Below, piece after piece: positions 47,072-64,000 of a stretch of DNA of 64,000 bases. A model generated the notes under the pieces. It was not told the DNA's origin. It did no database searches and worked only from the letters and a program-made list of their open reading frames with translations. The stretch is from assembly GCA_016192455.1 (NCBI GenBank), contig JACPUC010000002.1:1-64000 (forward strand), read 5' to 3'. A program made the translations under genes and the position numbers. Position 1 is the first letter of the stretch, and each line of letters starts with the position of its first letter. This DNA comes from Candidatus Tectimicrobiota bacterium. GTDB taxonomy: Bacteria; JACPUC01.

Positions 47072-47206
47072 GGCTCTCCTGGTTTCCAACGGTTGTGGTG
47101 GGCCTCGCCGGCGCGGGGAAGGGAGGGGAATCGGCAGGGCGCCAGGGCTGCGCCGCGGCTCGTGCTGTACGGCCCGCGCGCGGCCCTCCGGGCGGGCGAG
47201 GGTCGG

Positions 47207-48238
47207 TCAGGCTTCCTTCCAGTGCTTCAGCAGGCCGGTCAGGCGCTCGTAGCTCGTACACGTATCCGCGAAGACGAACTCGCCCTTCGATACCGTGATG
47301 CCGCTGCCGCCGGCAGCCCGCAGGTGGGCGATGGCGCGGTCGACAAGCGCCCTCTTCACCACCACGCTGACGGCGTACCAATCGCGCTCGTGGCGCTCCT
47401 TGGCGTAGACCTTGGCGATGGTGGGCCCCTTCATGCCGGCGAGCTCGAGGTCGCCGATGAGGTGGTCGGCCACCGCTTCCTCGGAGGCGCCCCGCAGGTT
47501 CGCCGTGATGCTGTAGTACTCCTGGGCGCGGCGCCGGCTCTCGAACGCCTCCAAGAGGTAGCGCGTCTGACGCAGCTTGGCGCGGCTGGCGTGCAGGGCG
47601 TGGAGGTTGCCGATCAGGCACGCCTCGGAGCGCAGGATGGTGCCGTTCTGGATGGTCTTCAGGCGGTTGTCGCGCAGGGTGACGCCGGAGGTCGTCAGGT
47701 CGGAGATGATGTCGGCGAACCCCATCGCCGGCGCCAGCTCAATGGCGCCGTGCGACTCGACGAGCGAGAAGTAGTGGATGCCATGATCGTGCAGGAATTG
47801 CCAGGTGAGGCTGGGGAACTTCGTGGCGACGCGCAGCTCGCCGCCGCGCTCCTTGAAGAGGGTGGCCAGGTCGGCGAGGTCGCCGAGGCTCTGCGCGTCC
47901 ACCCAGCTCTCCGGCACCGCCAGCACCAGCGCGCAGCGCCCATAGCCGAGGTTCTCCATGAGCACCGCCAGGCGATCGGTCTCGCGCTTGTACTCCATGA
48001 GCAGGTCGTAGCCGGCGATGCCGAGGTCGGCGATCTCCTCCTCAACCTTGGAGGGGATGTCATCGGTGCGCTGGAAGATGACCTTCATGTCAGGCTGACC
48101 CGCCACCCCCGCCTCGTACTCGCGCGGGTTCAGCCGCTCGACCCGCAGGTTGCACTCCGCCATGAAGGCAAGGGTGGGATCCTCGAGGTTCCCCTTGCTC
48201 GGGAGCGCGATGGTCAAACGTTGCCCGTTGTCGCGCAT
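47207..48238 (-). CDS. hisG: ATP phosphoribosyltransferase, long form
   Basis: IALPSKG, DLGIAGYD, RVATKF, GAIELAP, DLTTSGVTLRDNRL, plus C-terminal regulatory domain (GMKGPTI...GGSGI). Confidence 0.92.
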   Translation of the reverse strand: MRDNGQRLTIALPSKGNLEDPTLAFMAECNLRVERLNPREYEAGVAGQPDMKVIFQRTDDIPSKVEEEIADLGIAGYDLLMEYKRETDRLAVLMENLGYGRCALVLAVPESWVDAQSLGDLADLATLFKERGGELRVATKFPSLTWQFLHDHGIHYFSLVESHGAIELAPAMGFADIISDLTTSGVTLRDNRLKTIQNGTILRSEACLIGNLHALHASRAKLRQTRYLLEAFESRRRAQEYYSITANLRGASEEAVADHLIGDLELAGMKGPTIAKVYAKERHERDWYAVSVVVKRALVDRAIAHLRAAGGSGITVSKGEFVFADTCTSYERLTGLLKHWKEA

Positions 48239-48248
48239 GGCCCAGCCC

Positions 48249-49793
48249 TCACCCTGCTTGCCGCGCGGCGAGAATGGTTGCGGCGAGGCGCCCCAGCTCG
48301 GCCAGCGGCTCGCTGCGCTCCTCGCGCGTGCGCATGTTGCGCAGCCGCACCGTCGCGGCGCGCAGCTCATCCTCGCCGACGATGCAGGCGAACGGCACGC
48401 CGCTCTTGTTGGCGTAGCTGAGGCTCGATTTCAACGTGCGCTCCTTGATCTCCAGCTCCACCCGCAGGCCCGACCCCCGCAGCAGCTCGGCGAGGCGCGC
48501 GGCTTCCCCGCCGACGGCGCGGCCGATGGGGATGACGAGGAGATCGGGGCCCTCGCTGCGCGCCAGCGGCAGCTCCTCCGCTTCCAGCGCCAGGAGGAGA
48601 CGCTCCAGCCCAAAGGAGAAGCCGCACGCGGGCACCGCCTCATCGCCGCCCAGCACCGCCACCAGGTCGTCGTAGCGCCCGCCGCCGCAGAGCTCATCCT
48701 CGCGCCCCAGGGCTTCGTGCTGAATTTCAAAGATGACCCCCGTGTAGTACTGGATGCCGCGGCCGAAGCTCAGGTCGATGCTGAGCTGCTCCTCCGGCAC
48801 CTCATAGGCCCGCAGGGTTTCGACGAGACGCTGCAGGTCCTCCAACGGCTGCTGCGGCAGGGCGAACTTCTCCAGCAGCTTGCCGATGTCGGTGAAGACC
48901 TCCGGCGGTTGTCCTTTGATGAGGGCGAGCTCGGCCAGGAAATCCACCGCCCGCTGCACCTGCGCCTGGTGCTCCTCGTGGCGCATCTTGCCGAGGAGTC
49001 GGGCCGCCACCTGGCGGGCGTCGCGCGACTGCCGCGGCTGCACGTTCATCATCGCCAGCAGGCGCTCGATGAGCGCCGCCGCCTCCTCCGGCCGCGCCTC
49101 GAGGAGGGGGCGGAGGATGTCGTTGTGGGGTTCGGCGGGCGCCGCGCCGGCGGGGATGATCTCCAGGTCGTGCAGCGCCTGCTTGATCGACTCGATCCCC
49201 AGGTGCGGCTTGCCGAGGTTCTCCATGCTCTCGATGAAGAAACTGCGGGCCCGCTCGCTCAAACGCAGGTTGGTGAGCAGGGCCAGCATGACGCCGACGT
49301 GCCCCAGACGCACCGTCAGCCGCCGCAGCCCGAGGGCCTGCAACCCCTTGCAGGCCAGGGCGATGATCTCCGCATCAGCGGCGGGTCCGGCAGCGCCGAG
49401 GAGCTCCACGCCGATGTGGGTGAACTGGCGGTGGCGGCCCCGCTGCGGCTGTTCGTAACGGAAGGCCGGGCCACAGTACTGCAGGCGGACCGGGAGCGGC
49501 GCGTGGCGCAGGGCGTTGACGTAGACCCGCACCACCGACGCCGTCAGCTCCGGCCGCAGGCAGAGGCGCCGCCGGGCGAAGTCCTGGAAGGTGTAGAGCT
49601 TCGAGATGATGCCGCCGCCGGACTTGCGCAGGTGCAGCTCGGCGTGCTCGAGGATCGGCGGCTCCACGCCGCGGTAACCGTACGACGCAAAGAGGCGGCT
49701 GAGCTGCTCGCGCACCGCGACGTGCTGGGCGTAGCTCTCCGGCAGCAGGTCCAGAGTTCCCTTCACGCGTTCGATGGGACGTTGTCGGTCCAT
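48249..49793 (-). CDS. hisZ: HisZ / HisS paralogue (ATP-PRT regulatory subunit-like) that retains an anticodon-binding domain
   Basis: KGTLDLLP, LRPELTASV, FRYEQPQRGRHRQFTH, YYTG, GGGRYD, GFSFGLERL; directly upstream of hisG. Confidence 0.7.
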   Translation of the reverse strand: MDRQRPIERVKGTLDLLPESYAQHVAVREQLSRLFASYGYRGVEPPILEHAELHLRKSGGGIISKLYTFQDFARRRLCLRPELTASVVRVYVNALRHAPLPVRLQYCGPAFRYEQPQRGRHRQFTHIGVELLGAAGPAADAEIIALACKGLQALGLRRLTVRLGHVGVMLALLTNLRLSERARSFFIESMENLGKPHLGIESIKQALHDLEIIPAGAAPAEPHNDILRPLLEARPEEAAALIERLLAMMNVQPRQSRDARQVAARLLGKMRHEEHQAQVQRAVDFLAELALIKGQPPEVFTDIGKLLEKFALPQQPLEDLQRLVETLRAYEVPEEQLSIDLSFGRGIQYYTGVIFEIQHEALGREDELCGGGRYDDLVAVLGGDEAVPACGFSFGLERLLLALEAEELPLARSEGPDLLVIPIGRAVGGEAARLAELLRGSGLRVELEIKERTLKSSLSYANKSGVPFACIVGEDELRAATVRLRNMRTREERSEPLAELGRLAATILAARQAG

Positions 49794-49851
49794 GCAGAGC
49801 GGCTCCGCGGTGTCTGCGTCGGCGTCTGAGGAAGGGCGTCGGCGAGGGGTG

Positions 49852-50361
49852 TCACGACTCCTCCGGCGGCGCCTCCTCAGCGAAACGGCGCGGCCCCAGC
49901 TTCAACACCAGCAAGGCGAGGCAGAGCGCCATGCCCAGCCCCGACTCGGGAAGTTGCAGGCGGGTCTTCAGGAGGGGGATGAGCTCTAGCAGGAGCTGCC
50001 GTTCAGCCGCCTCGCCGCCATCGAAAGGGTGCCGCGCCAGCAGGCTGCGCACGGCGCCCTGGACGGTGCCCCGCACGCGCGACCAGTAGTCCAGCCCAGT
50101 TTCCTGAAAATCGTCCTCATCCAGGTAGAGGTGCGCCGCCGTCTCGATGTTCCAGTGCCACTGGTAGCCGAGGGAGATGACCAGCCCAAGCTCGCGCGTG
50201 ATCCCGGCGCGAATCTCTTCGAACGCCCCGCCGTAGGGCGTCTCCGCCAGCCAGTCAGCGAAGCGCCGCAGTTCCTCCGGCCGCACCTGGGTGGTGGCGT
50301 AGGTCAGCCCGTAGCTCCTCGCCAGGTACTCCTCGTACTGCGCGCGCAGGGCCGGGTCCAC
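49852..50361 (-). CDS. Hypothetical protein
   Basis: 169-aa ORF with GAGGGAGGGAG RBS before GTG; first gene of the his run; no family recognised. Confidence 0.6.
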   Translation of the reverse strand: MDPALRAQYEEYLARSYGLTYATTQVRPEELRRFADWLAETPYGGAFEEIRAGITRELGLVISLGYQWHWNIETAAHLYLDEDDFQETGLDYWSRVRGTVQGAVRSLLARHPFDGGEAAERQLLLELIPLLKTRLQLPESGLGMALCLALLVLKLGPRRFAEEAPPEES

Positions 50362-51915: not shown

Positions 51916-54216
51916 CTAGTCGGACGCCCGCCCCTCCGCCACGAGGCGGGCCACCTTGGGGGGATGCAGGGGGATCTCGCGGATGCGAACGCCGAAGGGG
52001 CCCAGGGCGTCCTCGACGGCCGCGGCAAGCACTCCCAGCGCGGCGATCGTCCCCGCCTCGCCGGCGCCCTTGGTGCCGAGGGGGTTCCAGGGTGACGGCG
52101 TCTCCTGGTGCAGGGTCTCGACGCGGGGCACCTCCAGCGCCGCCGGCATGGGGTAGTCCATGAACGAGCCGACCAGCGCCTGGCCGTTTTCGTCGAAGTA
52201 CATCTCCTCGAAGAGCGCCTCGCCGATGCCGTGCGCCACGCCGCCCTGCACCTGCCCCTCGACGATGAGCGGGTTGAGCACCGTGCCGCAGTCGTGCACG
52301 GTGGCGTAGCGCAGCACCCGCACGTGCCCCGTCTGCGGGTCCACCTCGACGATCGCGGCGGTCGAGCTGCTTGCCCAGGACTCGGCGGCCCCCTCGAAGC
52401 GCTCCGTTGCCTCGAGGCGACGATCAGCCCGGCGGGCGATGGCGGCGAGGTCTTGCAGGCTGACGCCGCGGGCGCTGCTGCCGCGCACCGAGACGCCGCC
52501 GCCACCCACTTCGAGGTCCGCCGCGTCCACCTCCAGGTGCTCCGCCGCCAGCTCCTTGAGGCGCCGCAGGAGCGTCTGGGCGGCCATGAAGGTGGCGTTG
52601 GCGCCAAGGATGGCGACGCGGCTGCCGAAGGTGCCGACGCCGTCCGGCACCCCATCGGTGTCCCCCAGACCGACGCGGATGCCTTCGGGAGGCACGCCGA
52701 AGACATCCGCGACCACCTGCGCCAAGCTGGTGCCGATCCCCTGCCCCTGGGAGGGTGAGCCGCAGTGCAGACGCAGGCCGCCGGCGTCGTCGAGCTCGAC
52801 GCGGGAGGTCTCCGACAGGCCGGCGCCCGTCGGCTCGACGCACATCGTCATGCCGAGGCCGCGGTAAACGGCGCCCTGCCGCAGGCGCGCCTGCTCGGCG
52901 CGGAACGCCGGCACGTCGAGGTGGCGGCGCAGCGTGTCGAGGAGCGCCGGGTAGTTGCCGCTGTCGTAGCGGATGGGGGCGCCGGCGACCGTCTTCAGGC
53001 CGGTGTCGTAGGGGAACTCGTGGGGTTGGATAAGGTTGCGCGCGCGCACCTCGAGCGGGTCGAGACCGAGCTCGGCGGCCGCGAAGTCGAGGAGGCGCTC
53101 GATGACGAAGTTCGCCTGCGGACGGCCCGCGCCGCGCACCGGACAGAGCGGCACCCGCGTGGTGTAGACGTGCGTGCCCTGAATGTCATAGGCCGGGATG
53201 TGGTAGCTGTTGAGGAGCGACATGGCGACGCGGTTCGGCGTCACCACGCTCATGGCGGCATAGGCCCCGGCTTCACTGAGGTAGTGGTCGCGCAAGCCGA
53301 GGAGAGTGCCGTCGCGGCGCACCGCAAGCTCCGCGTCGTGAAGCTGCAAGGTCTCCTGGAAGGTGCCGACGAAGTGCTCGTGGCGGTCCTCGACGAACTT
53401 CACGGCTCGCCGCAGGCGACGCGCCAGGTAGGGGACAAGGACATCCTCGGGGTAGAATCCCCCCTTGACGCCGAAGCCGCCCCCCACATCCGGGGCGATG
53501 ACGTGGATCTGCTCGACAGGCAGATCGAGCATGACGGCGAGCTTGGCGCGAAAACCGTGGGGCATCTGGGCGGAGGGCCAGACGGTGAGGCGCTGGCTGT
53601 CGGCATCGAAGGAGGCGACGAGGCCGCGCGTCTCCATCGGCATGCCGGAGGAGCACTTGATCCTGAAACGCTCGCGGATGACGAGGTCCGCCGCCGCGGC
53701 CGCCGCCGCGAAGTCCCCCCGCCGCTGCACCACGCGGGTGCAGAGGTTGGAGGGGTGGCGCTCATGGATGCGCGGCGTTGTCGGATCGAGCGCCTGCTCG
53801 AGGTCGATGACCGCCGGGAGCGGCTCGTACTCCACAACGATCTGCTCGACCGCGTCCTCGGCGAGGTAGCGCGACTCCGCCGCCACGCAGGCGATCGGTT
53901 CGCCGACGTAGCGCACCTTCTCTCGCGCCAGCGGCAGCAAGTTGGCGGGCTGCTCGACCGGGAAAGGAGTGAACATCGGCAGCTCGCGCGTGATCTCGGG
54001 GATGTCCTTGGCGCAGAGCGCCGCCGCCACGCCGGTGACGCGCCGCGCCGCCGCGACATCGACGCGCCGCAAGAGGGCGTGCGCGTGCGTGCTGCGCAGC
54101 ACCGCCAGGTGCAGCATGCCGTCGAAGGACAGGTCGGCCGCGTAGCAGCCCTGACCGGTGAGGAGCCGCGGGTCTTCCAGGCGTTTCAGGGCGGCGCCGA
54201 CGTAGCGCTGGGTCAT
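51916..54216 (-). CDS. Xanthine dehydrogenase-family molybdopterin-binding subunit (CoxL-like, not form I CODH)
   Basis: REKVRYVGEP, APDVGGGFGVKG, PVRGAGRP, QGQG..T, GTFGSR, QVQGG..HG, KGAGE; AAAGGAG RBS. Confidence 0.92.
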   Translation of the reverse strand: MTQRYVGAALKRLEDPRLLTGQGCYAADLSFDGMLHLAVLRSTHAHALLRRVDVAAARRVTGVAAALCAKDIPEITRELPMFTPFPVEQPANLLPLAREKVRYVGEPIACVAAESRYLAEDAVEQIVVEYEPLPAVIDLEQALDPTTPRIHERHPSNLCTRVVQRRGDFAAAAAAADLVIRERFRIKCSSGMPMETRGLVASFDADSQRLTVWPSAQMPHGFRAKLAVMLDLPVEQIHVIAPDVGGGFGVKGGFYPEDVLVPYLARRLRRAVKFVEDRHEHFVGTFQETLQLHDAELAVRRDGTLLGLRDHYLSEAGAYAAMSVVTPNRVAMSLLNSYHIPAYDIQGTHVYTTRVPLCPVRGAGRPQANFVIERLLDFAAAELGLDPLEVRARNLIQPHEFPYDTGLKTVAGAPIRYDSGNYPALLDTLRRHLDVPAFRAEQARLRQGAVYRGLGMTMCVEPTGAGLSETSRVELDDAGGLRLHCGSPSQGQGIGTSLAQVVADVFGVPPEGIRVGLGDTDGVPDGVGTFGSRVAILGANATFMAAQTLLRRLKELAAEHLEVDAADLEVGGGGVSVRGSSARGVSLQDLAAIARRADRRLEATERFEGAAESWASSSTAAIVEVDPQTGHVRVLRYATVHDCGTVLNPLIVEGQVQGGVAHGIGEALFEEMYFDENGQALVGSFMDYPMPAALEVPRVETLHQETPSPWNPLGTKGAGEAGTIAALGVLAAAVEDALGPFGVRIREIPLHPPKVARLVAEGRASD

Positions 54217-54376
54217 GCAGGTCTCCTTTCCGCGGTGCGTCGCGTGGCGGAGGAGCAGGCGCCGGCTGAGCCCCACGACGGGCTGCGTCGCCTCTCCCGT
54301 TGCTCGCGGGCGCTGCCGAAGGGGCGCGAGACCCCGCGGCAGCGTAGAGACTTGGCTTCCCCGCCGCGGCAGGGTG

Positions 54377-54405
54377 AGTATAGGGTTCGCGCCAGGGTCA
54401 ATCAA
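54377..54405 (-). promoter_or_regulatory. Putative sigma70 promoter of the Mo-subunit gene
   Basis: Minus strand TTGATT-N17-TATACT. Confidence 0.5.
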
Positions 54406-54472
54406 CCGCGCGCCTCTGCGCCGCGCCGGGGAGGGGGCGGGAAAGGCGGCCCCGCGGGGGGTGAGGGGGTGA

Positions 54473-54502
54473 TTGACAGCCTCGACGTGCGCGCCGTAAG
54501 AT
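54473..54502 (+). promoter_or_regulatory. Putative sigma70 promoter of the grdE-grdB unit
   Basis: TTGACA-N18-TAAGAT, back-to-back with the minus-strand promoter. Confidence 0.6.
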
Positions 54503-54621
54503 TGGGCAACTCAACGAGCTGCGGTTCCCGCCGAGCCCGCTGCCGGATGGCCCGTCCCGCCTCCGGGTGACGCGAAGGTTCGCTGCGCCGGCGGTCGCGC
54601 CACCTGCGGGGGTGCCCCTCC

Positions 54622-55920
54622 ATGAGACTTGAGCTGCTCGTCCACCGCATCCGCGATCTGCGCGCCGGTGCGCCGACGCGCCTGGGGGGGGGCGTGCTCA
54701 CGGTTGACACGGCGGCCTTGGGCGAGGCGCTGCGTGCGGCGGCGGGCATCGAGGTGCGCGTCGAGCTGGCGCGACCAGGCGAGTCGGTGCGCCTGAGCAA
54801 CGTGCTCGACCTGATCGAGCCGCGCTGCAAGGATGACGCCGGCGGCGCCTACTTCGCCGGCTTCCATGCCCCGCTCCAGGTGGCGGGGAGCGGCGGCACG
54901 CACGTGCTGGAGGGGCTTGCCGTCGTCGAGACGGGGGCGCTGCGCGGCCTCATCGGCGGCGTCATCGACCTCTCCGGGGCTGCGGCCAGGCTCACGCCGT
55001 TCGGCAGCCTGCATCACGTTGTCCTGGAGACGGCCCCCAGGGCGGGGATGGACAAGACCTCCTACGCCGCCGCCATCCGCCGCGCCGGCCTCGAAGCGGC
55101 TTGCCTTCTGGCCCGCGCCTGCCGCAGCGCCGCGCCGGACGAGCGGCGGACCTACGATCTCTCCCTCACCGCCGAGGGGTCCGCATCCTCGCTCCCCGCC
55201 GCCGGGGCCGACGGGGCGCCACGCCTGCCGCGCATCGCGTACGTGTGCATGCTCCATGCCCTCGGCGACACGCGGGAATCGTACCTCTACGGCCAGCGGG
55301 TGCGCGACTTCACCCCGACCCTGCTGCATCCCAACGAGGTCCTTGATGGGGCCGTGGTCTCGCACCACTACGATATCTCCCCCGGCATGAAGAACACCAC
55401 TTACACCTTCCAGAACCATCCGGTGATCCGCGACCTCTATGCCCGGCATGGCCGCGACCTCATCTTCGCCGGCGTGGTGGCGGCCAATCAGCCGGTGCGC
55501 CTGGAGGACAAGGAGTGTTCCGCCTTCATGACGGCGCGCCTCTCGGCCCACCTGCTGCGCGCCGACGGCGTCATCATCACCAAGGAGGGGGCAGGCGCGG
55601 GCGACTACGACCTCATGCGGCAGTGCCAGGCGCACGAGGCGATGGGGGTGAGGACGGTCCTCATTGATAACGAGCAGATCAACGCCAGCGGCATCGGCGA
55701 AATGCCGCTCATCGACGTGACCCCGTACGCCGAGGCGATGGTCAGCACCGGCAACGTCGAGGAGCTCGTCCACCTGCCGGAGGTTGCGCGGGTGCTCGGG
55801 GGCGACACGATGGTGAACGTGCCGGGCTCGCTGCGCGGGCCGCTACGCCTGGAGTCGATCGTCATCCCCGGCGCCAACAGCACGCTCGGCCTTACGTCCA
55901 TGGCGACCGCCCACGTCTAG
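54622..55920 (+). CDS. grdE: Glycine/sarcosine/betaine reductase component B accessory subunit (GrdE/GrdI-like)
   Basis: MRLEL, LARPGESVR..NVLDLIEPRCK, G.THVL, LPRIAYV, PTLLHPNEVLDGAVVS, KNTTYTFQNHP, ADGVIITKEG, MVSTGN. Confidence 0.85.
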   Translation: MRLELLVHRIRDLRAGAPTRLGGGVLTVDTAALGEALRAAAGIEVRVELARPGESVRLSNVLDLIEPRCKDDAGGAYFAGFHAPLQVAGSGGTHVLEGLAVVETGALRGLIGGVIDLSGAAARLTPFGSLHHVVLETAPRAGMDKTSYAAAIRRAGLEAACLLARACRSAAPDERRTYDLSLTAEGSASSLPAAGADGAPRLPRIAYVCMLHALGDTRESYLYGQRVRDFTPTLLHPNEVLDGAVVSHHYDISPGMKNTTYTFQNHPVIRDLYARHGRDLIFAGVVAANQPVRLEDKECSAFMTARLSAHLLRADGVIITKEGAGAGDYDLMRQCQAHEAMGVRTVLIDNEQINASGIGEMPLIDVTPYAEAMVSTGNVEELVHLPEVARVLGGDTMVNVPGSLRGPLRLESIVIPGANSTLGLTSMATAHV

Positions 55921-56055
55921 GCCGCGGAGCGGCCCGACGCAGCCCGGCGGCCGGGGGGGGCCGCGGTGGGCGCGATGGATGGCCGCAACCTCCTCCGCCA
56001 TGCGTCGTGTTTCTCCTCCGCGTGCGAGGGGAGCGAGTGCTCTGAAGGGGCTGGT

Positions 56056-57402
56056 ATGGTCGAGCCATTGCGTGTCGTGCACTACCTCAATCAGTTCTTC
56101 GGGCAGATCGGCGGCGAGGAGAAGGCGGACGCAGCGCCGCGCCTGCACCAGGGCCCGCTCGGACCGGGGCTGCTCCTCCAGGAACGGCTTGGAGAGCGGG
56201 GCAGGGTGGTCGCCACCGTCATCTGCGGCGACAATTACGCGGCGGAGCGTCAGGAGACCGCCGGCGAGGTGCTGGCCCTGCTGCGGGGGCTGGAGTTCGA
56301 CGCCTTTGTGGCGGGTCCCGCGTTCAACGCCGGGCGGTACGGCCTGGCCTGCGGCAGCCTCTGCGCGGCGGTGCGGGAGGCGCGCGGGGTGCCCTGCGTG
56401 ACCGGCATGTTTGCCGAGAACCCAGCGGTGGAGCAGTTCCGCCGCCGCGCCTACATCGTGCGCAGCGGCTCCACGGCGAGGGAGATGGCGCAGGCCATGG
56501 AGGCGGTGACGGCGCTGCTCCTGAAGCTCGCCGCGGCGCCGGACGAGACCGGGGTGCAGGCTGGCGGCCTCGCCGTCTCGCCGGAAGCTGATGGCTACTT
56601 TCCGCAGGGGCGCACGGTGAACGTCGTCGGCGATCGCCTTGCCGCCGCGCGCGCCGTGGAGATGCTCCTCGCCAGAGTGCAGGGGCGGCCGTTCCACACC
56701 GAGATCCCCCTGCCCGCGCCGGGGCGCGTGCCGCCGGCGCCGGCGCTGCGGGAACTGCGCGGCGCCTGTCTGGCGCTGGTGACGGAGGGAGGGCTGGTGC
56801 CGGCGGGCAACCCCGATGGCCTCGTGGGGGCGCGGGCGAGCAGCTATCGCGCTTACAGCATCGCGGGGCTCGGGTCGCTCCGGGCCGGGGCCTACGAGTC
56901 GGTGCACCGCGGCTTCGACACCTCGGCGGTGAACGCCGATCCGAACCGCATCGTGCCGCTCGACGCGGCGCGCCAGCTCGAAGCCGAGGGGGTGTTCGGC
57001 AAGCTCCACGAGACCTACTATGTCACCTCCGGCTGCGCCACCTGGATCGAGAGCAGTCAGGCGATGGCCGCCGGCATTGCCGCGGAGCTGCGCCGAAACG
57101 GCGTGGACGGAGTCATCCTCACCGCGACGTGAGGCACCGGGGTGCGCTGCGGGGCAGCGATGGCACGTGAGCTGGAGCGGCAGGGCATTCCCACGGCGCT
57201 CGTCGCCACCCTCGTCTCCACGGCGCTGACGGTGGGGGCGAACCGCATCGTTGTGGGGACCGGCATCCAGCATCCGCTCGGCAACCCGAAGCTCAGCGCC
57301 GAGGAGGAGCGCCGCCAGCGCCGCAGGCTCCTGGAGTGCGCGCTCCAGAGCCTGACGACGGACCTCCAGGAACAACGGGTCTTCGAGGCCGCGGCGGCCT
57401 GA
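56056..57402 (+). CDS. grdB: Glycine/betaine reductase selenoprotein B-like; in-frame TGA (Sec) at 57130-57132
   Basis: RVVHYLNQFFGQIGGEEKAD, ICGDNY, AGPAFNAGRYG.ACG, LVTEGG.VP.GNPD, NADPNR.VPLD, then VILTAT-TGA-GTGVRCGAAMARELERQGIP...VGANRIV...HPLGNP in the same frame. Confidence 0.92.
57142..57166 (+). promoter_or_regulatory. Candidate SECIS hairpin of grdB
   Basis: CGCTGC-GGG-GCAGCG stem-loop (57145-57159) starting 13 nt after the TGA, extended by GTG/CAC. Confidence 0.65.
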
Positions 57403-57560
57403 GGGGCGGCCGCCCGGCGAAGGCCGGGGTTCGCGGAGTTGCCCCGCGCGGCGCGGCCGGATGCGCTCGGGCGCTGGGGGGCTGGAGCACGTCACGAGAA
57501 CCCTGCGTGAGGCGGCCTCCCCTCCTCGCGCCGTGCAAGGGCAGAAGGAAGCCAGGCGCA

Positions 57561-59132
57561 ATGACTCTCGGAGACCTCCTCCTGGCGAGCGCCCGCAACG
57601 TGCCGCAGAAGACCGCCCTGGTCATGGCAGGGCGCGCGCTCACCTTTGCAAGCTGGAACGAGCGCGCCAACCGCGTGGCCAATGCCCTCCTCGGCCTTGG
57701 GCTGGGGGCGGGCGACCGGGTGTCGATCTACCTGTCGAACTGCCTCGAGTGGGCCGAGGCATACTTCGGCGTGACCAAGAGCGGCGGCATCGTGGCGCCT
57801 GTCAACGCCTGGTTCCGAGAGAAGGAGCTGGGCGTGGTGCTGCGCCATGCGGAGCCCCGCTTTGTCATCACGGAGCGCGCCCTTCTGGGGTATGTGCGCA
57901 AGGTGCGGGAGAACGTCGCCTCCATAGCGCAGGCGGTCATCGTCGACGAGCCGCGCGCCGCCCCACTCACGCGCGGCGAGCTCGACTACCGCGGCCTCCT
58001 CGAGGCCGCCTCGGCCGCCGAGCCCGGGGTGCCGCTCAGCGAGCAGGACGTGCAGGCCATCGTCTACACCTCCGGCACCACGGGGGCGCCGAAGGGTACC
58101 GTCCTGACGCACCTGAACCAGCTCCTAGCCGGCTTCTACATCCTCATGCACGAGTGGGGCCTGCGGCACGAGGACGTCTTCCTGGCCGCCGCCCCCTTCT
58201 GCTTCCGCACCGGCCTGCACCGCCTGCACCTCTGCGCCGGCCTGGGGGGGACGACGCACTACCTCGAGCGCTTCGAAGCGCGGCAGATGCTGAAGGTTGC
58301 CGCCGAGGAGCGGGTGACGGCGCTGGGCGTGGTGCCGACCATGCTCCACAAGCTCCTCGATGTGCTCGAGTCGGAGCCGTACGACCTGCAGGCGCTGCGC
58401 GTCGTCTTCAGCACCTCGGCGCCGCTGCCGCAGGCCGACAAGGAACGCCTGCTGACGCTCTTCCCGCACGTCGAGCTGAACGAGTACTACGCCGCCACCG
58501 AAGGAGGCATCATCAGCAACCTGAAGCCGTGCGATCAACTGCGCAAGCTCAACTGCGTGGGCAAACCGGCCCTGGGCATGCAGGTGCGGCTGCTGGACGA
58601 CATGGGGCGCGACGCGCCGCAGGGCGAGACGGGGGAGATCGCCGTCAGCAGCGGGCCGGGAGGCGGTCCCCTGGTCTTCCGGGAGTACTTCCGCAATCCG
58701 CAGGCCACCGCCGCGGCAATGCGGGGCGACTGGTATTTGTCGGGCGATCTCGGCCGCTTCGACGAGGACGGCTACCTCTATGTCATGGGGCGGAAGAAGG
58801 ACATGATCATCAGCGGCGGGGTGAACATCTTCCCGCGCGACATCGAGGAGCATCTCTGCACGCATCCGAGCGTGCGCGAGGCCGCCGTGGTCGGCGTCCC
58901 CGATGCGCAGTGGGGCGAGATCGTCACGGCGGTGGTGGCCTTGCAGTCCGGGGTGCAGGTGGGCGAGGAGGACCTCATCGCGTACTGCAAGGATGCTCTG
59001 GCCAGCTACAAGAAACCGCGCCGGGTGCTCTTCTGCGAGGAGCTGCCGAAGAACGCCAACGGCAAGATCATGAAGGACGAGCTGCGACAGTCAATCGTCG
59101 GTGCTGCGCGGGCGGAACGCAGGGGCGGGTAG
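57561..59132 (+). CDS. AMP-dependent acyl-CoA synthetase / ligase
   Basis: YTSGTTGAPKG, YAATEGG, SGDLG.FDEDG, GRKKDMIISGG, WGE, LPKNANGK. Confidence 0.93.
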   Translation: MTLGDLLLASARNVPQKTALVMAGRALTFASWNERANRVANALLGLGLGAGDRVSIYLSNCLEWAEAYFGVTKSGGIVAPVNAWFREKELGVVLRHAEPRFVITERALLGYVRKVRENVASIAQAVIVDEPRAAPLTRGELDYRGLLEAASAAEPGVPLSEQDVQAIVYTSGTTGAPKGTVLTHLNQLLAGFYILMHEWGLRHEDVFLAAAPFCFRTGLHRLHLCAGLGGTTHYLERFEARQMLKVAAEERVTALGVVPTMLHKLLDVLESEPYDLQALRVVFSTSAPLPQADKERLLTLFPHVELNEYYAATEGGIISNLKPCDQLRKLNCVGKPALGMQVRLLDDMGRDAPQGETGEIAVSSGPGGGPLVFREYFRNPQATAAAMRGDWYLSGDLGRFDEDGYLYVMGRKKDMIISGGVNIFPRDIEEHLCTHPSVREAAVVGVPDAQWGEIVTAVVALQSGVQVGEEDLIAYCKDALASYKKPRRVLFCEELPKNANGKIMKDELRQSIVGAARAERRGG

Positions 59133-59274
59133 GGGGTGCGCTGGAATCCCCGCCGCGCCGCGTCCCCCATGCGCGCCTCTCTCGCAGCGCTGCCTGGGAG
59201 CCGCGCCGGACCTGCAAACTCAGTGGTGGGAACGAAGGGCGCACGTCTGCCTCCGCCCCCATGGAGGTCTGTTC

Positions 59275-59490
59275 ATGAACGATGTAGAACGCGACTATCT
59301 CCGCTATTCCCTTGACCAGACTATCGAGACGCTCCAGGACATTCGAGAGCGCCTCATCACCGAGGATTACAATGAGGACTACGACATCACCGGGATGGTG
59401 GCGACCGTGAACAGTTTCCGCTGGGAGGTGGAGGCCTTCCTCGAAGAATTCAGCGCCAGCGCCGACGATGCGCAGGATGAAGCTGATTGA
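59275..59490 (+). CDS. Small acidic hypothetical protein (71 aa)
   Basis: GGAGG RBS before ATG; MNDVERDYLRYSLDQTIETLQDIRERL...EEFSASADDAQDEAD. Confidence 0.65.
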   Translation: MNDVERDYLRYSLDQTIETLQDIRERLITEDYNEDYDITGMVATVNSFRWEVEAFLEEFSASADDAQDEAD

Positions 59491-59667
59491 GCGTGGGAGG
59501 GGCGCCCTGACGTGGGGGGGGCCCGGCGTCGCGAGCGGCGTGAAGTCCGCGCGGCGGGCCGATGCGCCGCCGGGGATGCCGCCGCCGCGTGATTGTTGGT
59601 GGTGGGGGTGCGGCGAGGAGGATGTTGCCGGTGTTGCCGACGAACGTTCCAGAGGGGGAGAGCGCAG

Positions 59668-60102
59668 ATGGGTGAGATCGAAGTGCGGCAACGCATCACG
59701 GCGCCGGCGCTGGACGTCTTCAACTTCATCGCTGATGTCACCACTCATCCGCGCTACGCGGAGTTCTGCAAGCGCATCGAGATCACCTCGGCGCAGCGCC
59801 ACGGCGTCGGCGTCACCTTCACCCAGCTTACCGACCACGGCGACGGGGGGCTCTACGAGGTGCGCTCCCGCATCGCCCGCTGGGAGCCTGGCACGCATGT
59901 GAGCTGGGTGAACACGGATGCCCACGGCACGCCGCAGGTGGAGGTGATCTACGATCTCGTCCAGCACGGCGGCGAGGTCGAGGTGATCCACCGCGTCATC
60001 GGACCGATGCTCGACGACGAGGCCCTTCGTCAACGCTCGTACGACGACAATGTGGTTGAGCTCGCCAATTTGAAGCGGCTCCTGGAGCGGGGTGATCGCT
60101 AG
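59668..60102 (+). CDS. SRPBCC/START-superfamily ligand-binding protein (polyketide cyclase/dehydrase-like)
   Basis: I.APALDVFNFIAD...P, GVG.TF, WEPG..VSW, C-terminal helix LANLKRLLE; GGGGGAG RBS. Confidence 0.8.
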   Translation: MGEIEVRQRITAPALDVFNFIADVTTHPRYAEFCKRIEITSAQRHGVGVTFTQLTDHGDGGLYEVRSRIARWEPGTHVSWVNTDAHGTPQVEVIYDLVQHGGEVEVIHRVIGPMLDDEALRQRSYDDNVVELANLKRLLERGDR

Positions 60103-60225
60103 GCGCGTCCTGCCTCCTTCATGGCGCATCGGACCCCTTGCCCCACCATGGTGCGCCCGACGGCGCGAGGGGAGAGAGGTTTAGCCCTCACGCTGTTCTA
60201 ATCATCACGGCGTGGTCCGACGGCC

Positions 60226-60255
60226 TTGACGTAGGAAGCTTTGCGAGAGTACTAT
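60226..60255 (+). promoter_or_regulatory. Putative sigma70 promoter of the UGSC/flavoprotein unit
   Basis: TTGACG-N18-TACTAT. Confidence 0.55.
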
Positions 60256-60439
60256 CGAAGCCTGCCCCGGTCGTGCGCACGGGTACTGCCAGTTCTTCCC
60301 CTGCAGTGCCGTGGATGTGGAAACGCCGCCCCTGAAGATTGGTACGACGAGGTCTGCCGCCGTCGGCCCGCAGCGCCGCGAAGCAGCATTCCCGACTCGT
60401 TGCGCCACGGTTGCACCGTTGCCTCGGAAGGTTGGAAGG

Positions 60440-61462
60440 ATGAGCCAAGCCAGGGGTGTGGCCGCAATCACCGTTGCTTCCCTCGAGGAGGCGCTTGAGA
60501 CCTGTTACGCGCGGGGTTGGACTGATGGTCTGCCCGTGATCCCGCCGACGGAGGGCCGCGTGCAGGGTATGCTTGCGGCGGCGGGGCGCCGGGGCGGCGA
60601 GCTCGTGGCGCACGTCAGCACGCGGCGCTGCAGCATCACCGCGCAGCAAATCGCCGTCAACGCGGTGATGGCGGGCTGCCTGCCGGAGTACTACCCCGTG
60701 GTCGAGACGGCGGTGCGGGCCATCGCCCAGCCGCAGTTTGGCGTGCATGGACCGATCACCAGCACCGCCGGCGCGGCCATCCTGGTGATCGTGCATGGTC
60801 CCATGGCGCGCCGGCTCGGCGTCCGCAGCGGCGGCAACCTCCTGGGGCCCGGGGCGCGCGCCAACGCCACCATCGGCCGGGCCCTGCGCCTGGTGATCCT
60901 CAATGTCCTTGGGGCGCGGGGCGAGCTCGACCGCTCCACGTTCGGCCAGCCGGGGAAGTACACCTCGTGCATTGCCGAGCACGATTCCTCCGGCCCCTGG
61001 CCACCCCTGCACGCCGCCCGCGGGCTGGACCCTGGGTGCAGCGCCGTGACCGTCTTCGCCTGCGAGGCGCAGCACCAGGTGAACGACCACCTGAGCGCCA
61101 CGCCGCAGGGCATCCTCGACACTGTGGCGCGGGTCATGGCCTTGCGCGGGCAGTGTGAGTACCTCCTCGTCTTCGGCGCCGAGCACCTGGCCACGCTGCG
61201 GGCGGCCGGCTGGTCGCGTCAGGATGTGGTGGACTACCTCTGGCGGCAGGCCCGGGCGCCCCTGGCCTACCTGAAGACGCTCATGAAGGTGCCCGGCTCC
61301 ATCGAGCCGGGCGATGGCGAGCAGCTCGTGCGGGTGGTGGAAGAGCCCGGGGACATCATGGTGATGCACGCGGGCGGCGAGGCGGGGCGCTTCTCACTCT
61401 GCTTCTATGGCTGGGCGACGCGCCGGAACTCCCGCGCCGTCACCCTCCCACTCGAGGGGTAA
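60440..61462 (+). CDS. Conserved uncharacterised protein of the family that accompanies UGSC-motif (seleno)proteins
   Basis: GWTDGLPVIPPT, IAVNAVMAGC.PEY, RANATIGRALRL, GQPGKY..CIAE; ends 7 nt before the UGSC gene. Confidence 0.75.
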   Translation: MSQARGVAAITVASLEEALETCYARGWTDGLPVIPPTEGRVQGMLAAAGRRGGELVAHVSTRRCSITAQQIAVNAVMAGCLPEYYPVVETAVRAIAQPQFGVHGPITSTAGAAILVIVHGPMARRLGVRSGGNLLGPGARANATIGRALRLVILNVLGARGELDRSTFGQPGKYTSCIAEHDSSGPWPPLHAARGLDPGCSAVTVFACEAQHQVNDHLSATPQGILDTVARVMALRGQCEYLLVFGAEHLATLRAAGWSRQDVVDYLWRQARAPLAYLKTLMKVPGSIEPGDGEQLVRVVEEPGDIMVMHAGGEAGRFSLCFYGWATRRNSRAVTLPLEG

Positions 61463-61469
61463 TCTGCAC

Positions 61470-62069
61470 ATGGTCCAGCCCTCTGCCGTGGAAGGCGCCT
61501 TTGCGGCGCCGCTCCGCCTCCTGGCGCCGGACGACGTCGGCGAAGCGGAAGCGCTGCCGCTTGCGGCGCGACCGGCGTCGTTCGAGGGGAGGGTGCTTGG
61601 CATCCTCGACAACCGCAAGCACAACTCCGAGCGCCTGCTCCTCGAAGTGGGAGAGCTGCTGCGCCGGCAGTACCGCCTGCGCGATGTCCGCCTGCACAAG
61701 AAGCCGAGCTTCAACGTTGAGGTGAGCCCGGAGCTGCTCCAGGCCATGGTGCAGGAGTGCGACCTGGTGGTCACCGGCATCGGCGACTGAGGGTCGTGCA
61801 GTTCGAGCAGTGTGCTCGACGCCATCCTCTTCGAGCAGGCCGGGGTGCCAAGCGCGGCGATCGTCACCGACGCCTTCGTCCGCACCGGGGCCGCCATTGC
61901 GGCGGCGTGGGGCATGCCCGATTACGGCTTCGCCGTGACCCATCATCCGATCGTGATTCAATCGACTGCGGAACTGGCGCGCTGGGCAACCGAGGTGGTG
62001 CCGCAGGTGCGGGCGATTCTCTCCGGGGAGGCCGCGTCGGGCGGGCGCGAAGGCAACCGAAGGGAGTAG
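61470..62069 (+). CDS. UGSC-motif selenoprotein; in-frame TGA (Sec) at 61788-61790
   Basis: LAARP..FEG..LGILDNRKHNS...CDLVVTGIGD-TGA-GSCSSSSVLDAI.FE.AGVP...TDAF...HHP; the two ORF-track halves are in one frame and give a UxxC motif. Confidence 0.9.
61803..61819 (+). promoter_or_regulatory. Candidate SECIS hairpin of the UGSC gene
   Basis: TCGAGCA-GTG-TGCTCGA perfect 7-bp stem starting 13 nt after the TGA. Confidence 0.65.
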
Positions 62070-62120
62070 GCCGGAGCCGCGGCCGGCCTTGCCAGGCAGG
62101 AGCAGGTCAGGGGAGGGAGC

Positions 62121-63893
62121 ATGCTGCCGAAAGGTGTCGTCGATCAGGAGCTGCGCGTCGATCTCCTCGTCCTCGGCTCTGAGGGGGCCGGCGCCAAGGC
62201 TGCCATTGAAGCGTATGACCTTGGCGTCACCAACAGTGTCATGGTGACGAAGGGGTTCTTCGGCAAGAGCGGCGTGACACTGATGGCGGGCCGTGCCGTG
62301 CAGGCCGCCCTTGGCCATATGGACCCCCATGACAACCCCGAGGTGCACCTGAAAGACACCGTGGAGGTCGGAGGGTACCTGACCAACCAGAAGCTCTCCG
62401 AGCGGCTCGTCACCCTGGCGCTCACCGAGATTCCGAAGCTGGAGACCTGGGGCGCCCGCTTCCAGAAAGAGGGAGACAAGTTCTTCCAGATCCAGTTGCC
62501 CGGCGCCTCCTATCCGCGCTCCTGCACCTCCGCCGTGCAGCAGGGCGGCCTCGAGTGGCGGCGCGCTTACAAGGCGCAGGCGCGCAAACGGCGCCTGCGG
62601 GTGCTGGAGAACGTCTTCGTCACCTCCCTGATGACGAAGGGGGGCCGCGTCTGCGGCGCCACCGCGGTCAACCTCGCCGACGGCCAGTTCTACCTCCTGC
62701 GCGCCAAGGCCGTGGTGCTGGCCTGCGGCGGCGCGACGCAGCTCTTCCCCCATACCGACGCCGCGCTGGAGGCCACCGGCGACGGCATGGCGCTCGCCTA
62801 CCGCGCCGGCTGCGACCTGGTGGACATGGAGTTCCACATGTTCTTCCCGTTCGGCGTGCTCTGGCCGACGGGCTTCCAGGGCCAAATCTGGCCGGCGGAC
62901 TTCCGCTACCGGCTGCGCGCCAAGTTCTACAACAACCTCGGCGAGGAATTCCTCCTGCGCTACCAGCCGGAGTGGGGCAACTGGGGGCTGCGCGACCCGA
63001 CCTCGCAGGCGATCTACCTCGAGAACCTCTACGGGCGCGGCTCGCCGCACGGTGGCGCCTACCTGTCGATCAACCACCTGCCGCGGAACATGATCGACAA
63101 CTTCATCGCCAAGTTCCACCGCAACCGCAAGAAGTGGTACTGGACGAAGCTGCAGCAGCTTGGCGTGGACCTGCGCACTGATGCCATCGAGGTGGGGCCG
63201 GTCTCCCACTACACCATGGGCGGTGTGCGCGTGGATGAGTGCTGCCGCACCACGCTGCAAGGCCTCTTCGCTGCCGGCGAGGTGGCGGGAGGGATGGACG
63301 GTGCCGAGCGCCTCGACGGCGGCCCGGCGATCACCTGGACCCAGACCATGGGACTAATCTGCGCCCAGGAGAGTGCCGCCCACCTGCAAGGCGCCGAGCT
63401 GCCGGAGATTGATGCGCAGCAGGTGCGGGAGGCCCGCGAGCGGGCCTACCAGCCGCTGGCGCGCTCCGAAGGTCCGCGAGGTTACGAGGCGAAGCGGCTC
63501 GTCAAACAGCTCATGGGCGCCGCCTGCACCTTCGTGCGCGACGAGGCGCGCCTGCGGGAGGGCTTGGCGCGGCTGGCGCGCCTGCGGGAAGAGGTGCTGC
63601 CGCGGCTCTCCGCCAATCCGACGCGCCGCTACAACCGGGACTGGGTGCACGCCCTTGAGGCGCAGAACCTTGCCGATGTTGCCGAGCTGGTGCTGCATGC
63701 GGCGCTCACCCGGCGCGAGAGCCGCAAGGCGCATTTCCGCTCGGACTTCCCGAAGGAAGACCCGGCGTGGATCAAGAACGTCATCCTGCGGCGGGGGGGA
63801 GATGGGCGGCTGGAGGTCCAGATCGTCGATCCGGTGATGACGAAAGTGTTTCCCCCGGTGACCACTCCGTCCGGCCGCGATGGTTCAGCATGA
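62121..63893 (+). CDS. FAD-dependent oxidoreductase, SdhA/FrdA/NadB/AprA superfamily flavoprotein subunit
   Basis: DLLVLGSEGAG, AKAVVLACGG, TGDGMALAYRAG, HYTMGG, GLFAAGE, RRESRKAHFRSDFP. Confidence 0.88.
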   Translation: MLPKGVVDQELRVDLLVLGSEGAGAKAAIEAYDLGVTNSVMVTKGFFGKSGVTLMAGRAVQAALGHMDPHDNPEVHLKDTVEVGGYLTNQKLSERLVTLALTEIPKLETWGARFQKEGDKFFQIQLPGASYPRSCTSAVQQGGLEWRRAYKAQARKRRLRVLENVFVTSLMTKGGRVCGATAVNLADGQFYLLRAKAVVLACGGATQLFPHTDAALEATGDGMALAYRAGCDLVDMEFHMFFPFGVLWPTGFQGQIWPADFRYRLRAKFYNNLGEEFLLRYQPEWGNWGLRDPTSQAIYLENLYGRGSPHGGAYLSINHLPRNMIDNFIAKFHRNRKKWYWTKLQQLGVDLRTDAIEVGPVSHYTMGGVRVDECCRTTLQGLFAAGEVAGGMDGAERLDGGPAITWTQTMGLICAQESAAHLQGAELPEIDAQQVREARERAYQPLARSEGPRGYEAKRLVKQLMGAACTFVRDEARLREGLARLARLREEVLPRLSANPTRRYNRDWVHALEAQNLADVAELVLHAALTRRESRKAHFRSDFPKEDPAWIKNVILRRGGDGRLEVQIVDPVMTKVFPPVTTPSGRDGSA

Positions 63894-63914
63894 GAACCGC
63901 CAGAGGGCGATGAG

Positions 63915-64000
63915 ATGATGGGGAAGATGGGGAAAGAATCAGCTCGCAGCTCCAGTTCTGAAGGCACGGTCGAAGTGTTTCGTTTCGATCCCAAGGTCGA
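63915..64000 (+). CDS. Probable SdhB/FrdB-type iron-sulfur subunit, 5' fragment
   Basis: Frame reads ...GTVEVFRFDPKV directly after the flavoprotein, typical of SdhB/FrdB N-termini; truncated by the window end. Confidence 0.6.
   Translation, partial: MMGKMGKESARSSSSEGTVEVFRFDPKV

Follow-up and report, generated by a model that had tools for sequence, protein, structure and literature searches.

A UGSC selenoprotein module and a GrdE/GrdB pair in a groundwater bacterium: a co-directional cluster read as a probable mosaic of functional units

The window analysed here, a stretch of 64,000 nucleotides (nt), comes from a Candidatus Tectimicrobiota bacterium and covers positions 1-64000 of contig C5 (C5:1-64000) in a genome of 4.46 megabases, with 31 contigs, about 67% guanine-cytosine (GC) content and 88% completeness. 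A set of 199,900 species genomes contains no second genome from its phylum, and the DNA of the window is found in groundwater metagenomes. Our subject is the right-hand end of the window, which encodes two putative selenoproteins. The first is GrdB, adjacent to GrdE, as in protein B of glycine-reductase-type systems; the second belongs to the UGSC family and lies beside a protein of 341 amino acids (aa) that we call the partner. A sequence-only reading of this stretch had proposed one selenium-dependent pathway for the whole cluster. With moderate confidence, we instead favour a mosaic built from three or more functional units: the grdEB pair, a partner-UGSC-flavoprotein-2Fe-2S block and the remaining genes. 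The main interest of the stretch is the partner/UGSC module, together with a Grd system whose GrdE copies lack a key cysteine (Cys) and for which no GrdD was detected. The features are as follows (positions without a contig name are those of the window; adenosine monophosphate, AMP; coenzyme A, CoA; selenocysteine, Sec; ATP-binding cassette, ABC).

51916-54216, minus strand: CoxL/XDH-family molybdopterin subunit (PF01315, PF02738, PF20256; top NCBIfam score 720 bits against a cut-off of 950)
54377-54502, no strand: divergent intergenic region with one sigma-70-like site per strand (hexamers at 54405-54377 on the minus strand and 54473-54502 on the plus strand)
54622-55920, plus strand: GrdE-like alpha subunit of a protein-B-type reductase (PF09338, 365 bits; NF040793, 274 against a cut-off of 780)
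56056-57402, plus strand: GrdB-like selenoprotein B (TIGR01918, 464 bits against 65.45; PF07355, 422.5 against 22)
57130-57132, plus strand: in-frame TGA (predicted Sec) of GrdB, inside ILTAT-U-GTGVRCGA
57561-59132, plus strand: AMP-forming acyl-CoA ligase of the ANL superfamily (PF00501, 267 bits; PF13193, 81 bits; PRK06187, 447 against a cut-off of 476)
59275-59490, plus strand: very acidic 71-aa open reading frame (ORF) in a stretch of locally lower GC between the ligase and SRPBCC genes, without a Pfam family match
59668-60102, plus strand: SRPBCC-like protein of 144 aa, a weak assignment (Polyketide_cyc2, 27.4 bits, equal to the cut-off of 27.4)
60226-60255, plus strand: promoter-like site upstream of the partner gene (TTGACG, 18-nt spacer, TACTAT)
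60440-61462, plus strand: 341-aa partner protein, without a Pfam or NCBIfam model
61470-62069, plus strand: UGSC-family selenoprotein (PF24696, 182.8 bits against 25; NF041046, 132.8 against 125)
61788-61790, plus strand: in-frame TGA (predicted Sec) of UGSC, inside GIGD-U-GSC
62121-63893, plus strand: flavoprotein of the SdhA/FrdA/TfrA superfamily (PF00890, PF02910; TfrA model, 389 against a cut-off of 718)
63915-64298, plus strand: 2Fe-2S protein of 127 aa, with the SdhB N-terminal domain only (PF13085, 81 bits), ending past the window at C5:64298
C5:64640-67685, past the window: NMT1/SsuA-type solute-binding protein, followed by ABC ATPase and permease genes in convergent orientation

Eight plus-strand genes thus run from 54622 to the window end, and the run continues along the contig past 64,000. 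The gene set, the two in-frame TGA codons, the divergent CoxL-type gene and the back-to-back promoter region all lie where the sequence-only reading had placed them, and the hexamers of that region can now be located individually. Promoter-like sites are enriched overall (four in 10 kilobases (kb) against 0.6 expected from shuffled sequence). Spacing varies along the cluster: 135 nt separate the end of the GrdE-like gene from grdB, and gaps of about 530 and 337 nt flank the SRPBCC gene, while the partner, UGSC, flavoprotein and 2Fe-2S genes follow one another at 7, 51 and 21 nt. Contigs from strains 92-96% identical, sampled in two other studies, span the junctions GrdB-ligase, ligase-small ORF, partner-UGSC and UGSC-flavoprotein, which argues against a chimeric assembly; the 71-aa ORF at 59275-59490 is covered by a contig of a strain about 94% identical. 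Among the matches listed, no strain contig lies over 59495-59663 or 60277-60386, and none spans 60161-60676 in one piece. These strains are too close for their gene order to count as conservation.

Both in-frame TGA codons are predicted, with high confidence, to encode Sec, because the frames are conserved downstream, the TGA recurs in homologues and selA, selB, selC and selD are present. In particular, the GrdB and UGSC frames are open, with conserved sequence past the TGA. Nearly all GrdB homologues from 62 Methylomirabilota genomes have exactly one in-frame TGA, and the Sec column of GrdB is TGA in 11 aligned relatives. Where UGSC genes adjoin partner genes, the UGSC motif is present in 57/61, CGSC in 1/61, and the motif was not found in 3/61. 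The sequence-only reading had named the absence of Sec machinery as the finding that would turn these genes into pseudogenes, and the machinery is there: selA (C23:42751-44103), selB (C23:40655-42544), the tRNA-Sec gene selC (C8:15301-15393, 75.5 bits) and selD (C3:190907-191827), itself with one TGA. Were the TGA codons true stops, the GrdB and UGSC genes would be broken or truncated. The hairpins predicted right after both codons speak for this, being no stabler than shuffled sequence (z -0.27 and -0.16; folding energy is uninformative here), but the open and conserved frames, a TGA in the same column of dozens of homologues and the four sel genes make it very improbable indeed. As a separate observation, the genome is unusually rich in selenoproteins, with three GrdB, three UGSC, GrdA, the Sec-containing SelD and a PrdB-like gene interrupted by a TGA (C25:22599-23624).

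The GrdE/GrdB pair of the window is one of three GrdE/GrdB(Sec) pairs in the genome (on C5, C30 and C31), whose GrdB proteins are 48-54% identical. The other genes of such a system lie elsewhere. Single-copy grdC and grdA(Sec) genes, grdC first and grdA right after it, are on C1 (C1:114268-118294); GrdC scores 646 bits with NF040746 against a cut-off of 450, and GrdA (C1:114817-115269) scores 193 bits with PF04723 and has one TGA and a CFVU motif. A thioredoxin reductase gene, trxB, is on C8. In the published arrangement, several substrate-specific B proteins feed one shared reductase (PMC10838667), and under such a pattern a window that lacks grdA, grdC and trx calls for no special explanation. 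Their absence had been read correctly (no grdA or trxB lies anywhere on the contig of the window), but the proposal built on it, in which UGSC and its partner replace GrdA, GrdC or thioredoxin, runs into the grdC-grdA(Sec) pair on C1 and the thioredoxin reductase on C8. We propose that GrdE/GrdB(Sec) would act as the substrate-specific protein B of a glycine-reductase-type system, most likely passing a carboxymethyl or similar group to the single GrdA working with GrdC, after which the thioredoxin system would re-reduce GrdA.

Of the genome-wide grd search suggested by the sequence-only reading, the part without a match is the one for grdD. The GrdD model NF040747 has no match at E <= 0.001 in this 88%-complete genome, which leaves the canonical GrdA/C/D route, as known, incomplete. 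Likewise, in five of five Methylomirabilota genomes with grdC-grdA-grdE-grdB, GrdD reaches only 22-31 bits against a cut-off of 350. The Grd systems of this genome and of those five may, to judge by these profile scores, work without the known protein C alpha subunit GrdD.

What the window pair acts on is suggested by its residues and scores. The window GrdB is full-length and above its family cut-off, but falls below every equivalog: glycine (TIGR01917, 411 against 602), sarcosine (NF040794, 449 against 800) and betaine (NF040795, 433 against 775). With the FarE model, the window score is 194 against 675. The B pairs on C30 and C31 are likewise under the glycine, sarcosine, betaine and fluoroacetate NCBIfam cut-offs, and Protein Data Bank (PDB) sequence searches with GrdE and GrdB gave no match. 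Around its Sec, the window GrdB reads UGTGVRC: glycine (Gly) occupies U+3, no Cys precedes the one at U+6, and the motif so departs from the UxxCxxC named in PMC13188914; another group of GrdB paralogues reads UGTCNRC. In C. difficile GrdE, the pyruvoyl group is at residue 242, where Cys242 is cleaved (PMC9908766). The window GrdE has Gly255 aligned with the Cys of two Methylomirabilota homologues (L133 and L145, in PPC and VPC), a column anchored on uncharacterised relatives whose top score is with the sarcosine GrdG model. The C30 GrdE also has Gly in this column, and the C31 GrdE has a deletion. By this alignment, all three GrdE copies of the genome are without the predicted pyruvoyl-precursor Cys.

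A Cys-less GrdE combined with an incomplete CxxC in GrdB makes a substrate other than glycine or sarcosine likely, which in part bears out the earlier argument against ordinary glycine or fumarate substrates. We infer that the window GrdE/GrdB would not bind its substrate as a Schiff base and would use a compound that carries a good leaving group. That is, the substrate is probably neither a primary nor a secondary amine, and a leaving group as in betaine (GrdHI) or fluoroacetate (FarBE) seems more likely. FarB has been described as lacking the CxxC, and both FarE and GrdI as lacking the pyruvoyl-precursor Cys (PMC10838667); on residue grounds, the window pair fits a FarBE/GrdHI-like protein B.

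Whether the cluster is one unit was addressed by comparing neighbourhoods. Loci were anchored on the partner in species genomes (80 loci from at least 10 phyla, with flanks of up to 10 kb where the contig allowed) and in metagenomes (80 loci, many on contigs of only 1-3 kb, so that missing neighbours there are weak evidence). A further 20 loci, the best of Methylomirabilota, were anchored on GrdB; this phylum was chosen as a comparison group because its proteins are among the top matches. Near the partner, GrdE/GrdB was found in 1/80 genome loci and 0/80 metagenome loci, the ligase in 4/80 and 3/80, the flavoprotein in 0/80 and 1/80, and CoxL in 3/80 and 1/80; the 2Fe-2S protein, the solute-binding protein and the SRPBCC protein were found in 0/80 of either set. 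Around GrdB, GrdE was adjacent in 19/20 loci and GrdC plus GrdA lay within the fetched stretch in 11/20, with partner plus UGSC in 2/20, the ligase in 1/20, CoxL in 3/20 and a flavoprotein/Fe-S pair in 1/20. The eight-gene neighbourhood as a unit occurs in none of the 180 loci from other organisms.

The partner/UGSC pair is a module independent of GrdE/GrdB and far commoner than GrdB. This follows from the single partner locus in 160 with GrdE/GrdB, from the two GrdB loci in 20 with partner/UGSC, and from the number of genomes holding each family. The partner family is present in 209/251 Methylomirabilota genomes (206/248 without the unpublished G141, G280 and G281, from which no locus was fetched), and GrdB in 62/251 (62/248 without these three). 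Many Methylomirabilota genomes (G061-G314) have at least eight copies of the partner family, with 150 matches listed and 990 further ones across 209 genomes; among genomes sharing only the domain with the source genome, the partner is present in 1/60. Within the genome itself, the GrdE/GrdB pairs on C30 and C31 stand in unrelated contexts, neither of them next to a partner, UGSC, ligase or flavoprotein gene, and the other two partner/UGSC pairs have no GrdE/GrdB beside them.

These counts bear directly on the single selenium-dependent pathway first proposed, in which UGSC and partner replace GrdA or thioredoxin, the ligase activates an acid and the flavoprotein/Fe-S pair gives electrons. Co-localisation of grdB with UGSC, partner, ligase and flavoprotein genes across genomes had been suggested as its check, and the check went against it: GrdE/GrdB is near the partner in 1/160 loci, the full unit is in 0/180 and the paralogous pairs of the same genome are separate. 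The ligase, moreover, is near only 7/160 partner loci and 1/20 GrdB loci, and no evidence was found for the role given to it. The genome has 29 full-length copies of the acyl-CoA ligase and 32 paralogues of the CoxL family (the window gene and 31 by tblastn), so adjacency by chance is likely and carries little weight. The promoter-like site upstream of the partner gene, the grdA, grdC and trxB genes elsewhere in the genome and the much greater frequency of the partner family compared with GrdB point the same way.

Several observations nonetheless weigh against splitting the stretch and lend the single pathway what support it has. The genes are co-directional, and no terminator-like site is predicted between the co-directional genes of the cluster. 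No grdD was found in the genome, and the GrdE and GrdB residues are non-canonical. The contigs of 92-96% identical strains join GrdB to the ligase, the partner to UGSC and UGSC to the flavoprotein. In three Methylomirabilota genomes (loci L030, L134 and L138), partner/UGSC lies 2-3 kb from GrdE; this proximity exceeds the roughly 3% expected from copy number and may be one inherited arrangement. Lastly, the phylum consists of this genome only and offers no close relative with long contigs, and a lineage-specific link would be compatible with loss in distant phyla. Taking both sides together, we regard the single pathway as unlikely, and hold to the mosaic of at least three units.

Within the mosaic, the partner/UGSC module is a widespread two-protein unit that merits study. 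More than 7,400 proteins of the partner family are found at E <= 1e-5 among the matches listed, of about 345 aa and named 'hypothetical'. The family alignment has invariant motifs GWTDGLPVxPPT, NAVMAGC and HGxxTST, and the AlphaFold model of the partner is a confident one (predicted local distance difference test (pLDDT) 84, predicted template modelling score (pTM) 0.86). Foldseek matched this model to class-I fumarate hydratase and Toblerone-fold hydrolases at template modelling (TM) scores of only 0.26-0.30, which we do not take as a fold assignment. UGSC adjoins the partner in 61/80 genome loci and 69/80 metagenome loci (130/160). Among the 80 genome loci there is no common third family, the best being Bac_luciferase and 4HBT at 5/110 proteins each. 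Some homologues of the partner are long (598-2000 aa, n=43); the UGSC domain PF24696 is fused in 9/43 of them and thioredoxin-reductase-type domains in 19/43. The sequences of six long forms were inspected, and a CAVC or CATC motif was seen in two with thioredoxin-reductase-type fusions. The ESM Atlas clusters of the partner family also include fusions to UGSC and to AhpC-TSA/Redoxin, some of them auto-named 'thioredoxin'.

The source genome has three partner/UGSC pairs, including the copies on C7 and C9. Some side observations concern these other two pairs. UbiD-family genes (prenylated flavin mononucleotide decarboxylases) lie near them at C7:124725-126131 and C9:98650-100380, and the gene just upstream of the C9 partner is a Flavin_Reduct gene. 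The C9 partner is separated from its UGSC gene by a 2.7-kb insert (C9:102706-105469), whose GC content is about 51% in a genome of 67% GC. Two ORFs in it resemble DNA methyltransferases (motifs DPPW and SPPY), and the insert has the look of a restriction-modification cassette that was acquired.

The UGSC family has been described before, with UGSC fused to a conserved domain called 'Unknown_1' (PMC2398784), which may be the partner. In 2008, UGSC ranked among the most abundant predicted selenoproteins of ocean and freshwater metagenomes, and a thioredoxin-like fold was suggested for it (PMC2398784). A 2026 review places it among selenoproteins of largely uncharacterised function (PMC13188914). 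Our analysis suggests a relationship for its Sec site. Across 22 UGSC sequences, the G-D-U-G-S-C columns are invariant, and the predicted fold is a flavodoxin-like alpha/beta one with Sec at a helix start (pLDDT 87). Foldseek returned generic flavodoxin-like, Rossmann-like and receiver-like folds only, with no specific PDB match. In a profile comparison with hhalign, UGSC 88-184 aligns with GrdB 332-425, Sec on Sec, at a probability of 74.7% and E 2.6e-5, against E 0.06-0.6 in four control comparisons; the E-x-x-G-(I/V)-P and H-P motifs are also matched. The profile match suggests that UGSC and the C-terminal, Sec-bearing domain of GrdB are distantly homologous.

Structural modelling links the two proteins of the module. 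As a stand-in for the window pair, we modelled the natural Cys-form pair of locus L082, one such among the 80 genome loci. The complex scores 0.72 against 0.00 for the best of three controls, on a scale whose mark is reached by 58/80 solved complexes and 2/110 mismatched pairs. At least 90% of contacts are shared between runs, and the partner has a pLDDT of at least 88. Cys97, at the Sec position, lies at the modelled interface, beside the NAVMAGC and HG..TST segments of the partner. The model supports the view that partner and UGSC would bind each other.

The flavoprotein and 2Fe-2S genes complete the block. Aligned with FrdA/SdhA, the flavoprotein keeps HYTMGG and the arginine (Arg) of GANRLG, whereas SHT has become SGVT (histidine (His) to Gly), HPT has become FPF and the RGEGG loop is lost. 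We take the His of SHT to be the covalent site of flavin adenine dinucleotide (FAD), and HPT, RGEGG, HYTMGG and the Arg presumably have catalytic roles. This alignment sets the flavoprotein apart from ordinary fumarate reductases and points to a divergent active site. On a 2.2-kb metagenome contig (L147), partner, UGSC and flavoprotein follow one another as they do here, with amino-acid identities of 81, 65 and 85%; this is the only sub-block conserved beyond the near-identical strains. Flavoprotein/Fe-S genes by grdEB in L145 were considered as a parallel and dropped, being an ordinary Sdh with a membrane subunit. Because the partner is fused to thioredoxin-reductase-like domains elsewhere, and given the order in L147, it is plausible that the flavoprotein serves as electron donor to the UGSC pair. 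The electron role first proposed for the flavoprotein/Fe-S pair survives in this form, though not as part of a single pathway.

How might such a module work? We envisage partner and UGSC as a heterodimeric selenoenzyme in which the partner would be the catalytic subunit. UGSC would supply a Sec-x-x-Cys redox centre of the GrdB/PrdB kind, placed where it meets the invariant motifs of the partner, and this centre would be re-reduced by a flavoprotein, here the TfrA-like protein with the 2Fe-2S protein. The four genes would form a separate operon starting at the promoter-like site at 60226-60255. In general terms, partner/UGSC could be a third, stand-alone branch of Grd/Prd selenoreductases, which pairs a minimal GrdB-type Sec domain with a catalytic subunit whose fold has no solved counterpart. 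Re-reduction would come from a flavoprotein (thioredoxin-reductase-like where fused, TfrA-like/2Fe-2S here), and the family, having expanded within genomes of groundwater and soil phyla, would presumably serve many substrates; here, the module may share a class of compounds with the Cys-less GrdE/GrdB. We put this forward tentatively, as a possibility short of probable. Against the account of the module as a whole weigh two points: the homology of UGSC and GrdB comes from one profile comparison at 75% probability, and the modelled complex is that of another organism's pair, used as a stand-in, and is not a measurement.

The same fusions allow another account of the block, in which the partner-UGSC-flavoprotein-2Fe-2S operon is a thioredoxin-like reducing system for oxidised GrdA (or GrdB), that is, a reductant and not a catalytic replacement. 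The thioredoxin-reductase-like and thioredoxin-fold domains fused to the partner, the U-x-x-C redox motif of UGSC and the presence of trxA and trxB in clostridial grd operons (PMC10838667) are all in keeping with such a role, as is the position of the module, which adjoins grdEB here and is near it in three Methylomirabilota genomes. On the other hand, at least 147/251 Methylomirabilota genomes have the partner family without a GrdB match, and copy numbers that reach at least eight partners per genome suggest many substrates and not one client. The 341-aa partner, with its many invariant polar residues, is enzyme-like and not carrier-like, and the genome has an ordinary trxB. We consider this account unlikely, a shade more so than the single pathway, and prefer to regard partner/UGSC as a selenoenzyme in its own right.

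The remaining genes, that is the ligase, the SRPBCC gene, the CoxL paralogue and the NMT1-type ABC transporter, would be neighbours, with at most a putative link to either unit. The SRPBCC protein is single-copy and has no paralogue in the genome. All NCBIfam scores of the window CoxL are below the cut-offs, and the gene has no adjoining CoxM or CoxS, its flanks being a Wzy_C-like and the grdE-like gene. Left of it, the Wzy_C-like gene is followed by histidine-related housekeeping genes. These include, at 45650-49901, two HisS-like genes (tRNA-synt_His) around hisG, probably hisZ/hisG plus hisS, an ordinary housekeeping group that marks the left limit of the cluster. In a Burkholderiales metagenome-assembled genome, a CoxL-family gene lies directly upstream of partner/UGSC in the same orientation (L018:7585-9933); as 1/80 loci, this is probably chance. 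Paralogues of the flavoprotein and the binding protein are also found together on C2 and C6.

Taken as a whole, the analysis gives UGSC, an orphan selenoprotein family, a tractable hypothesis: it pairs with the partner, its Sec is predicted at the interface, it is like the Sec domain of GrdB, and thioredoxin-reductase-like domains are frequently fused to the partner. It also points to a Grd system beyond the classical anaerobes that comprises three B proteins predicted to be Cys-less, plus GrdC-GrdA, with no GrdD detected in the genome. This raises two questions, one about the compounds that these enzymes would reduce in groundwater, the other about the way in which GrdC releases its acyl group. 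More broadly, a tidy co-directional cluster in a paralogue-rich genome calls for a test of neighbourhood conservation before it is read as one pathway.

Compared with known systems, the window GrdE/GrdB pair shares with Grd/Far protein B its neighbouring genes for an alpha and a Sec-containing beta subunit, its full-length matches to PF09338, PF07355 and TIGR01918, its conserved Sec position and its setting of several B pairs with one GrdA per genome. Like FarE and GrdI, the window GrdE is without the pyruvoyl-precursor Cys, and like that of FarB, the CxxC of the window GrdB is incomplete (PMC10838667). It differs in scoring far under every equivalog cut-off, in standing outside any operon with grdA, grdC or trx in a genome where grdD was not found, and in its host, a high-GC groundwater lineage alone in its phylum and not a Firmicute or Synergistete. 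The window UGSC belongs with the family of Zhang and Gladyshev (2008), being above the cut-offs of both NF041046 and PF24696 and having the UGSC motif, whereas its modelled fold is flavodoxin-like and not the thioredoxin-like one suggested in PMC2398784. The likeness to the GrdB Sec domain, the pairing with a 341-aa partner, the thioredoxin-reductase fusions and the link to a TfrA-like flavoprotein go beyond the account in those parts of PMC2398784 that we draw on. With TfrA/FrdA/SdhA, the window flavoprotein shares the FAD_binding_2 and Succ_DH_flav_C domains and a following Fer2_3 2Fe-2S protein; it differs in being under all equivalog cut-offs and in that its Fe-S protein is the 2Fe-2S domain alone. 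D-proline reductase (PrdA/PrdB) does not need GrdA or GrdC and is reduced by a separate electron-transfer protein. The partner differs from it in that hhalign detects no resemblance to GrdE (E 0.6) or to the N-terminal portion of GrdB (E 0.23), and UGSC in reaching no Prd or Grd HMMER model (0/22). What PrdA/PrdB has in common with the model proposed for partner/UGSC is the plan of a two-subunit selenoenzyme in which one subunit carries U-x-x-C (PMC13188914).

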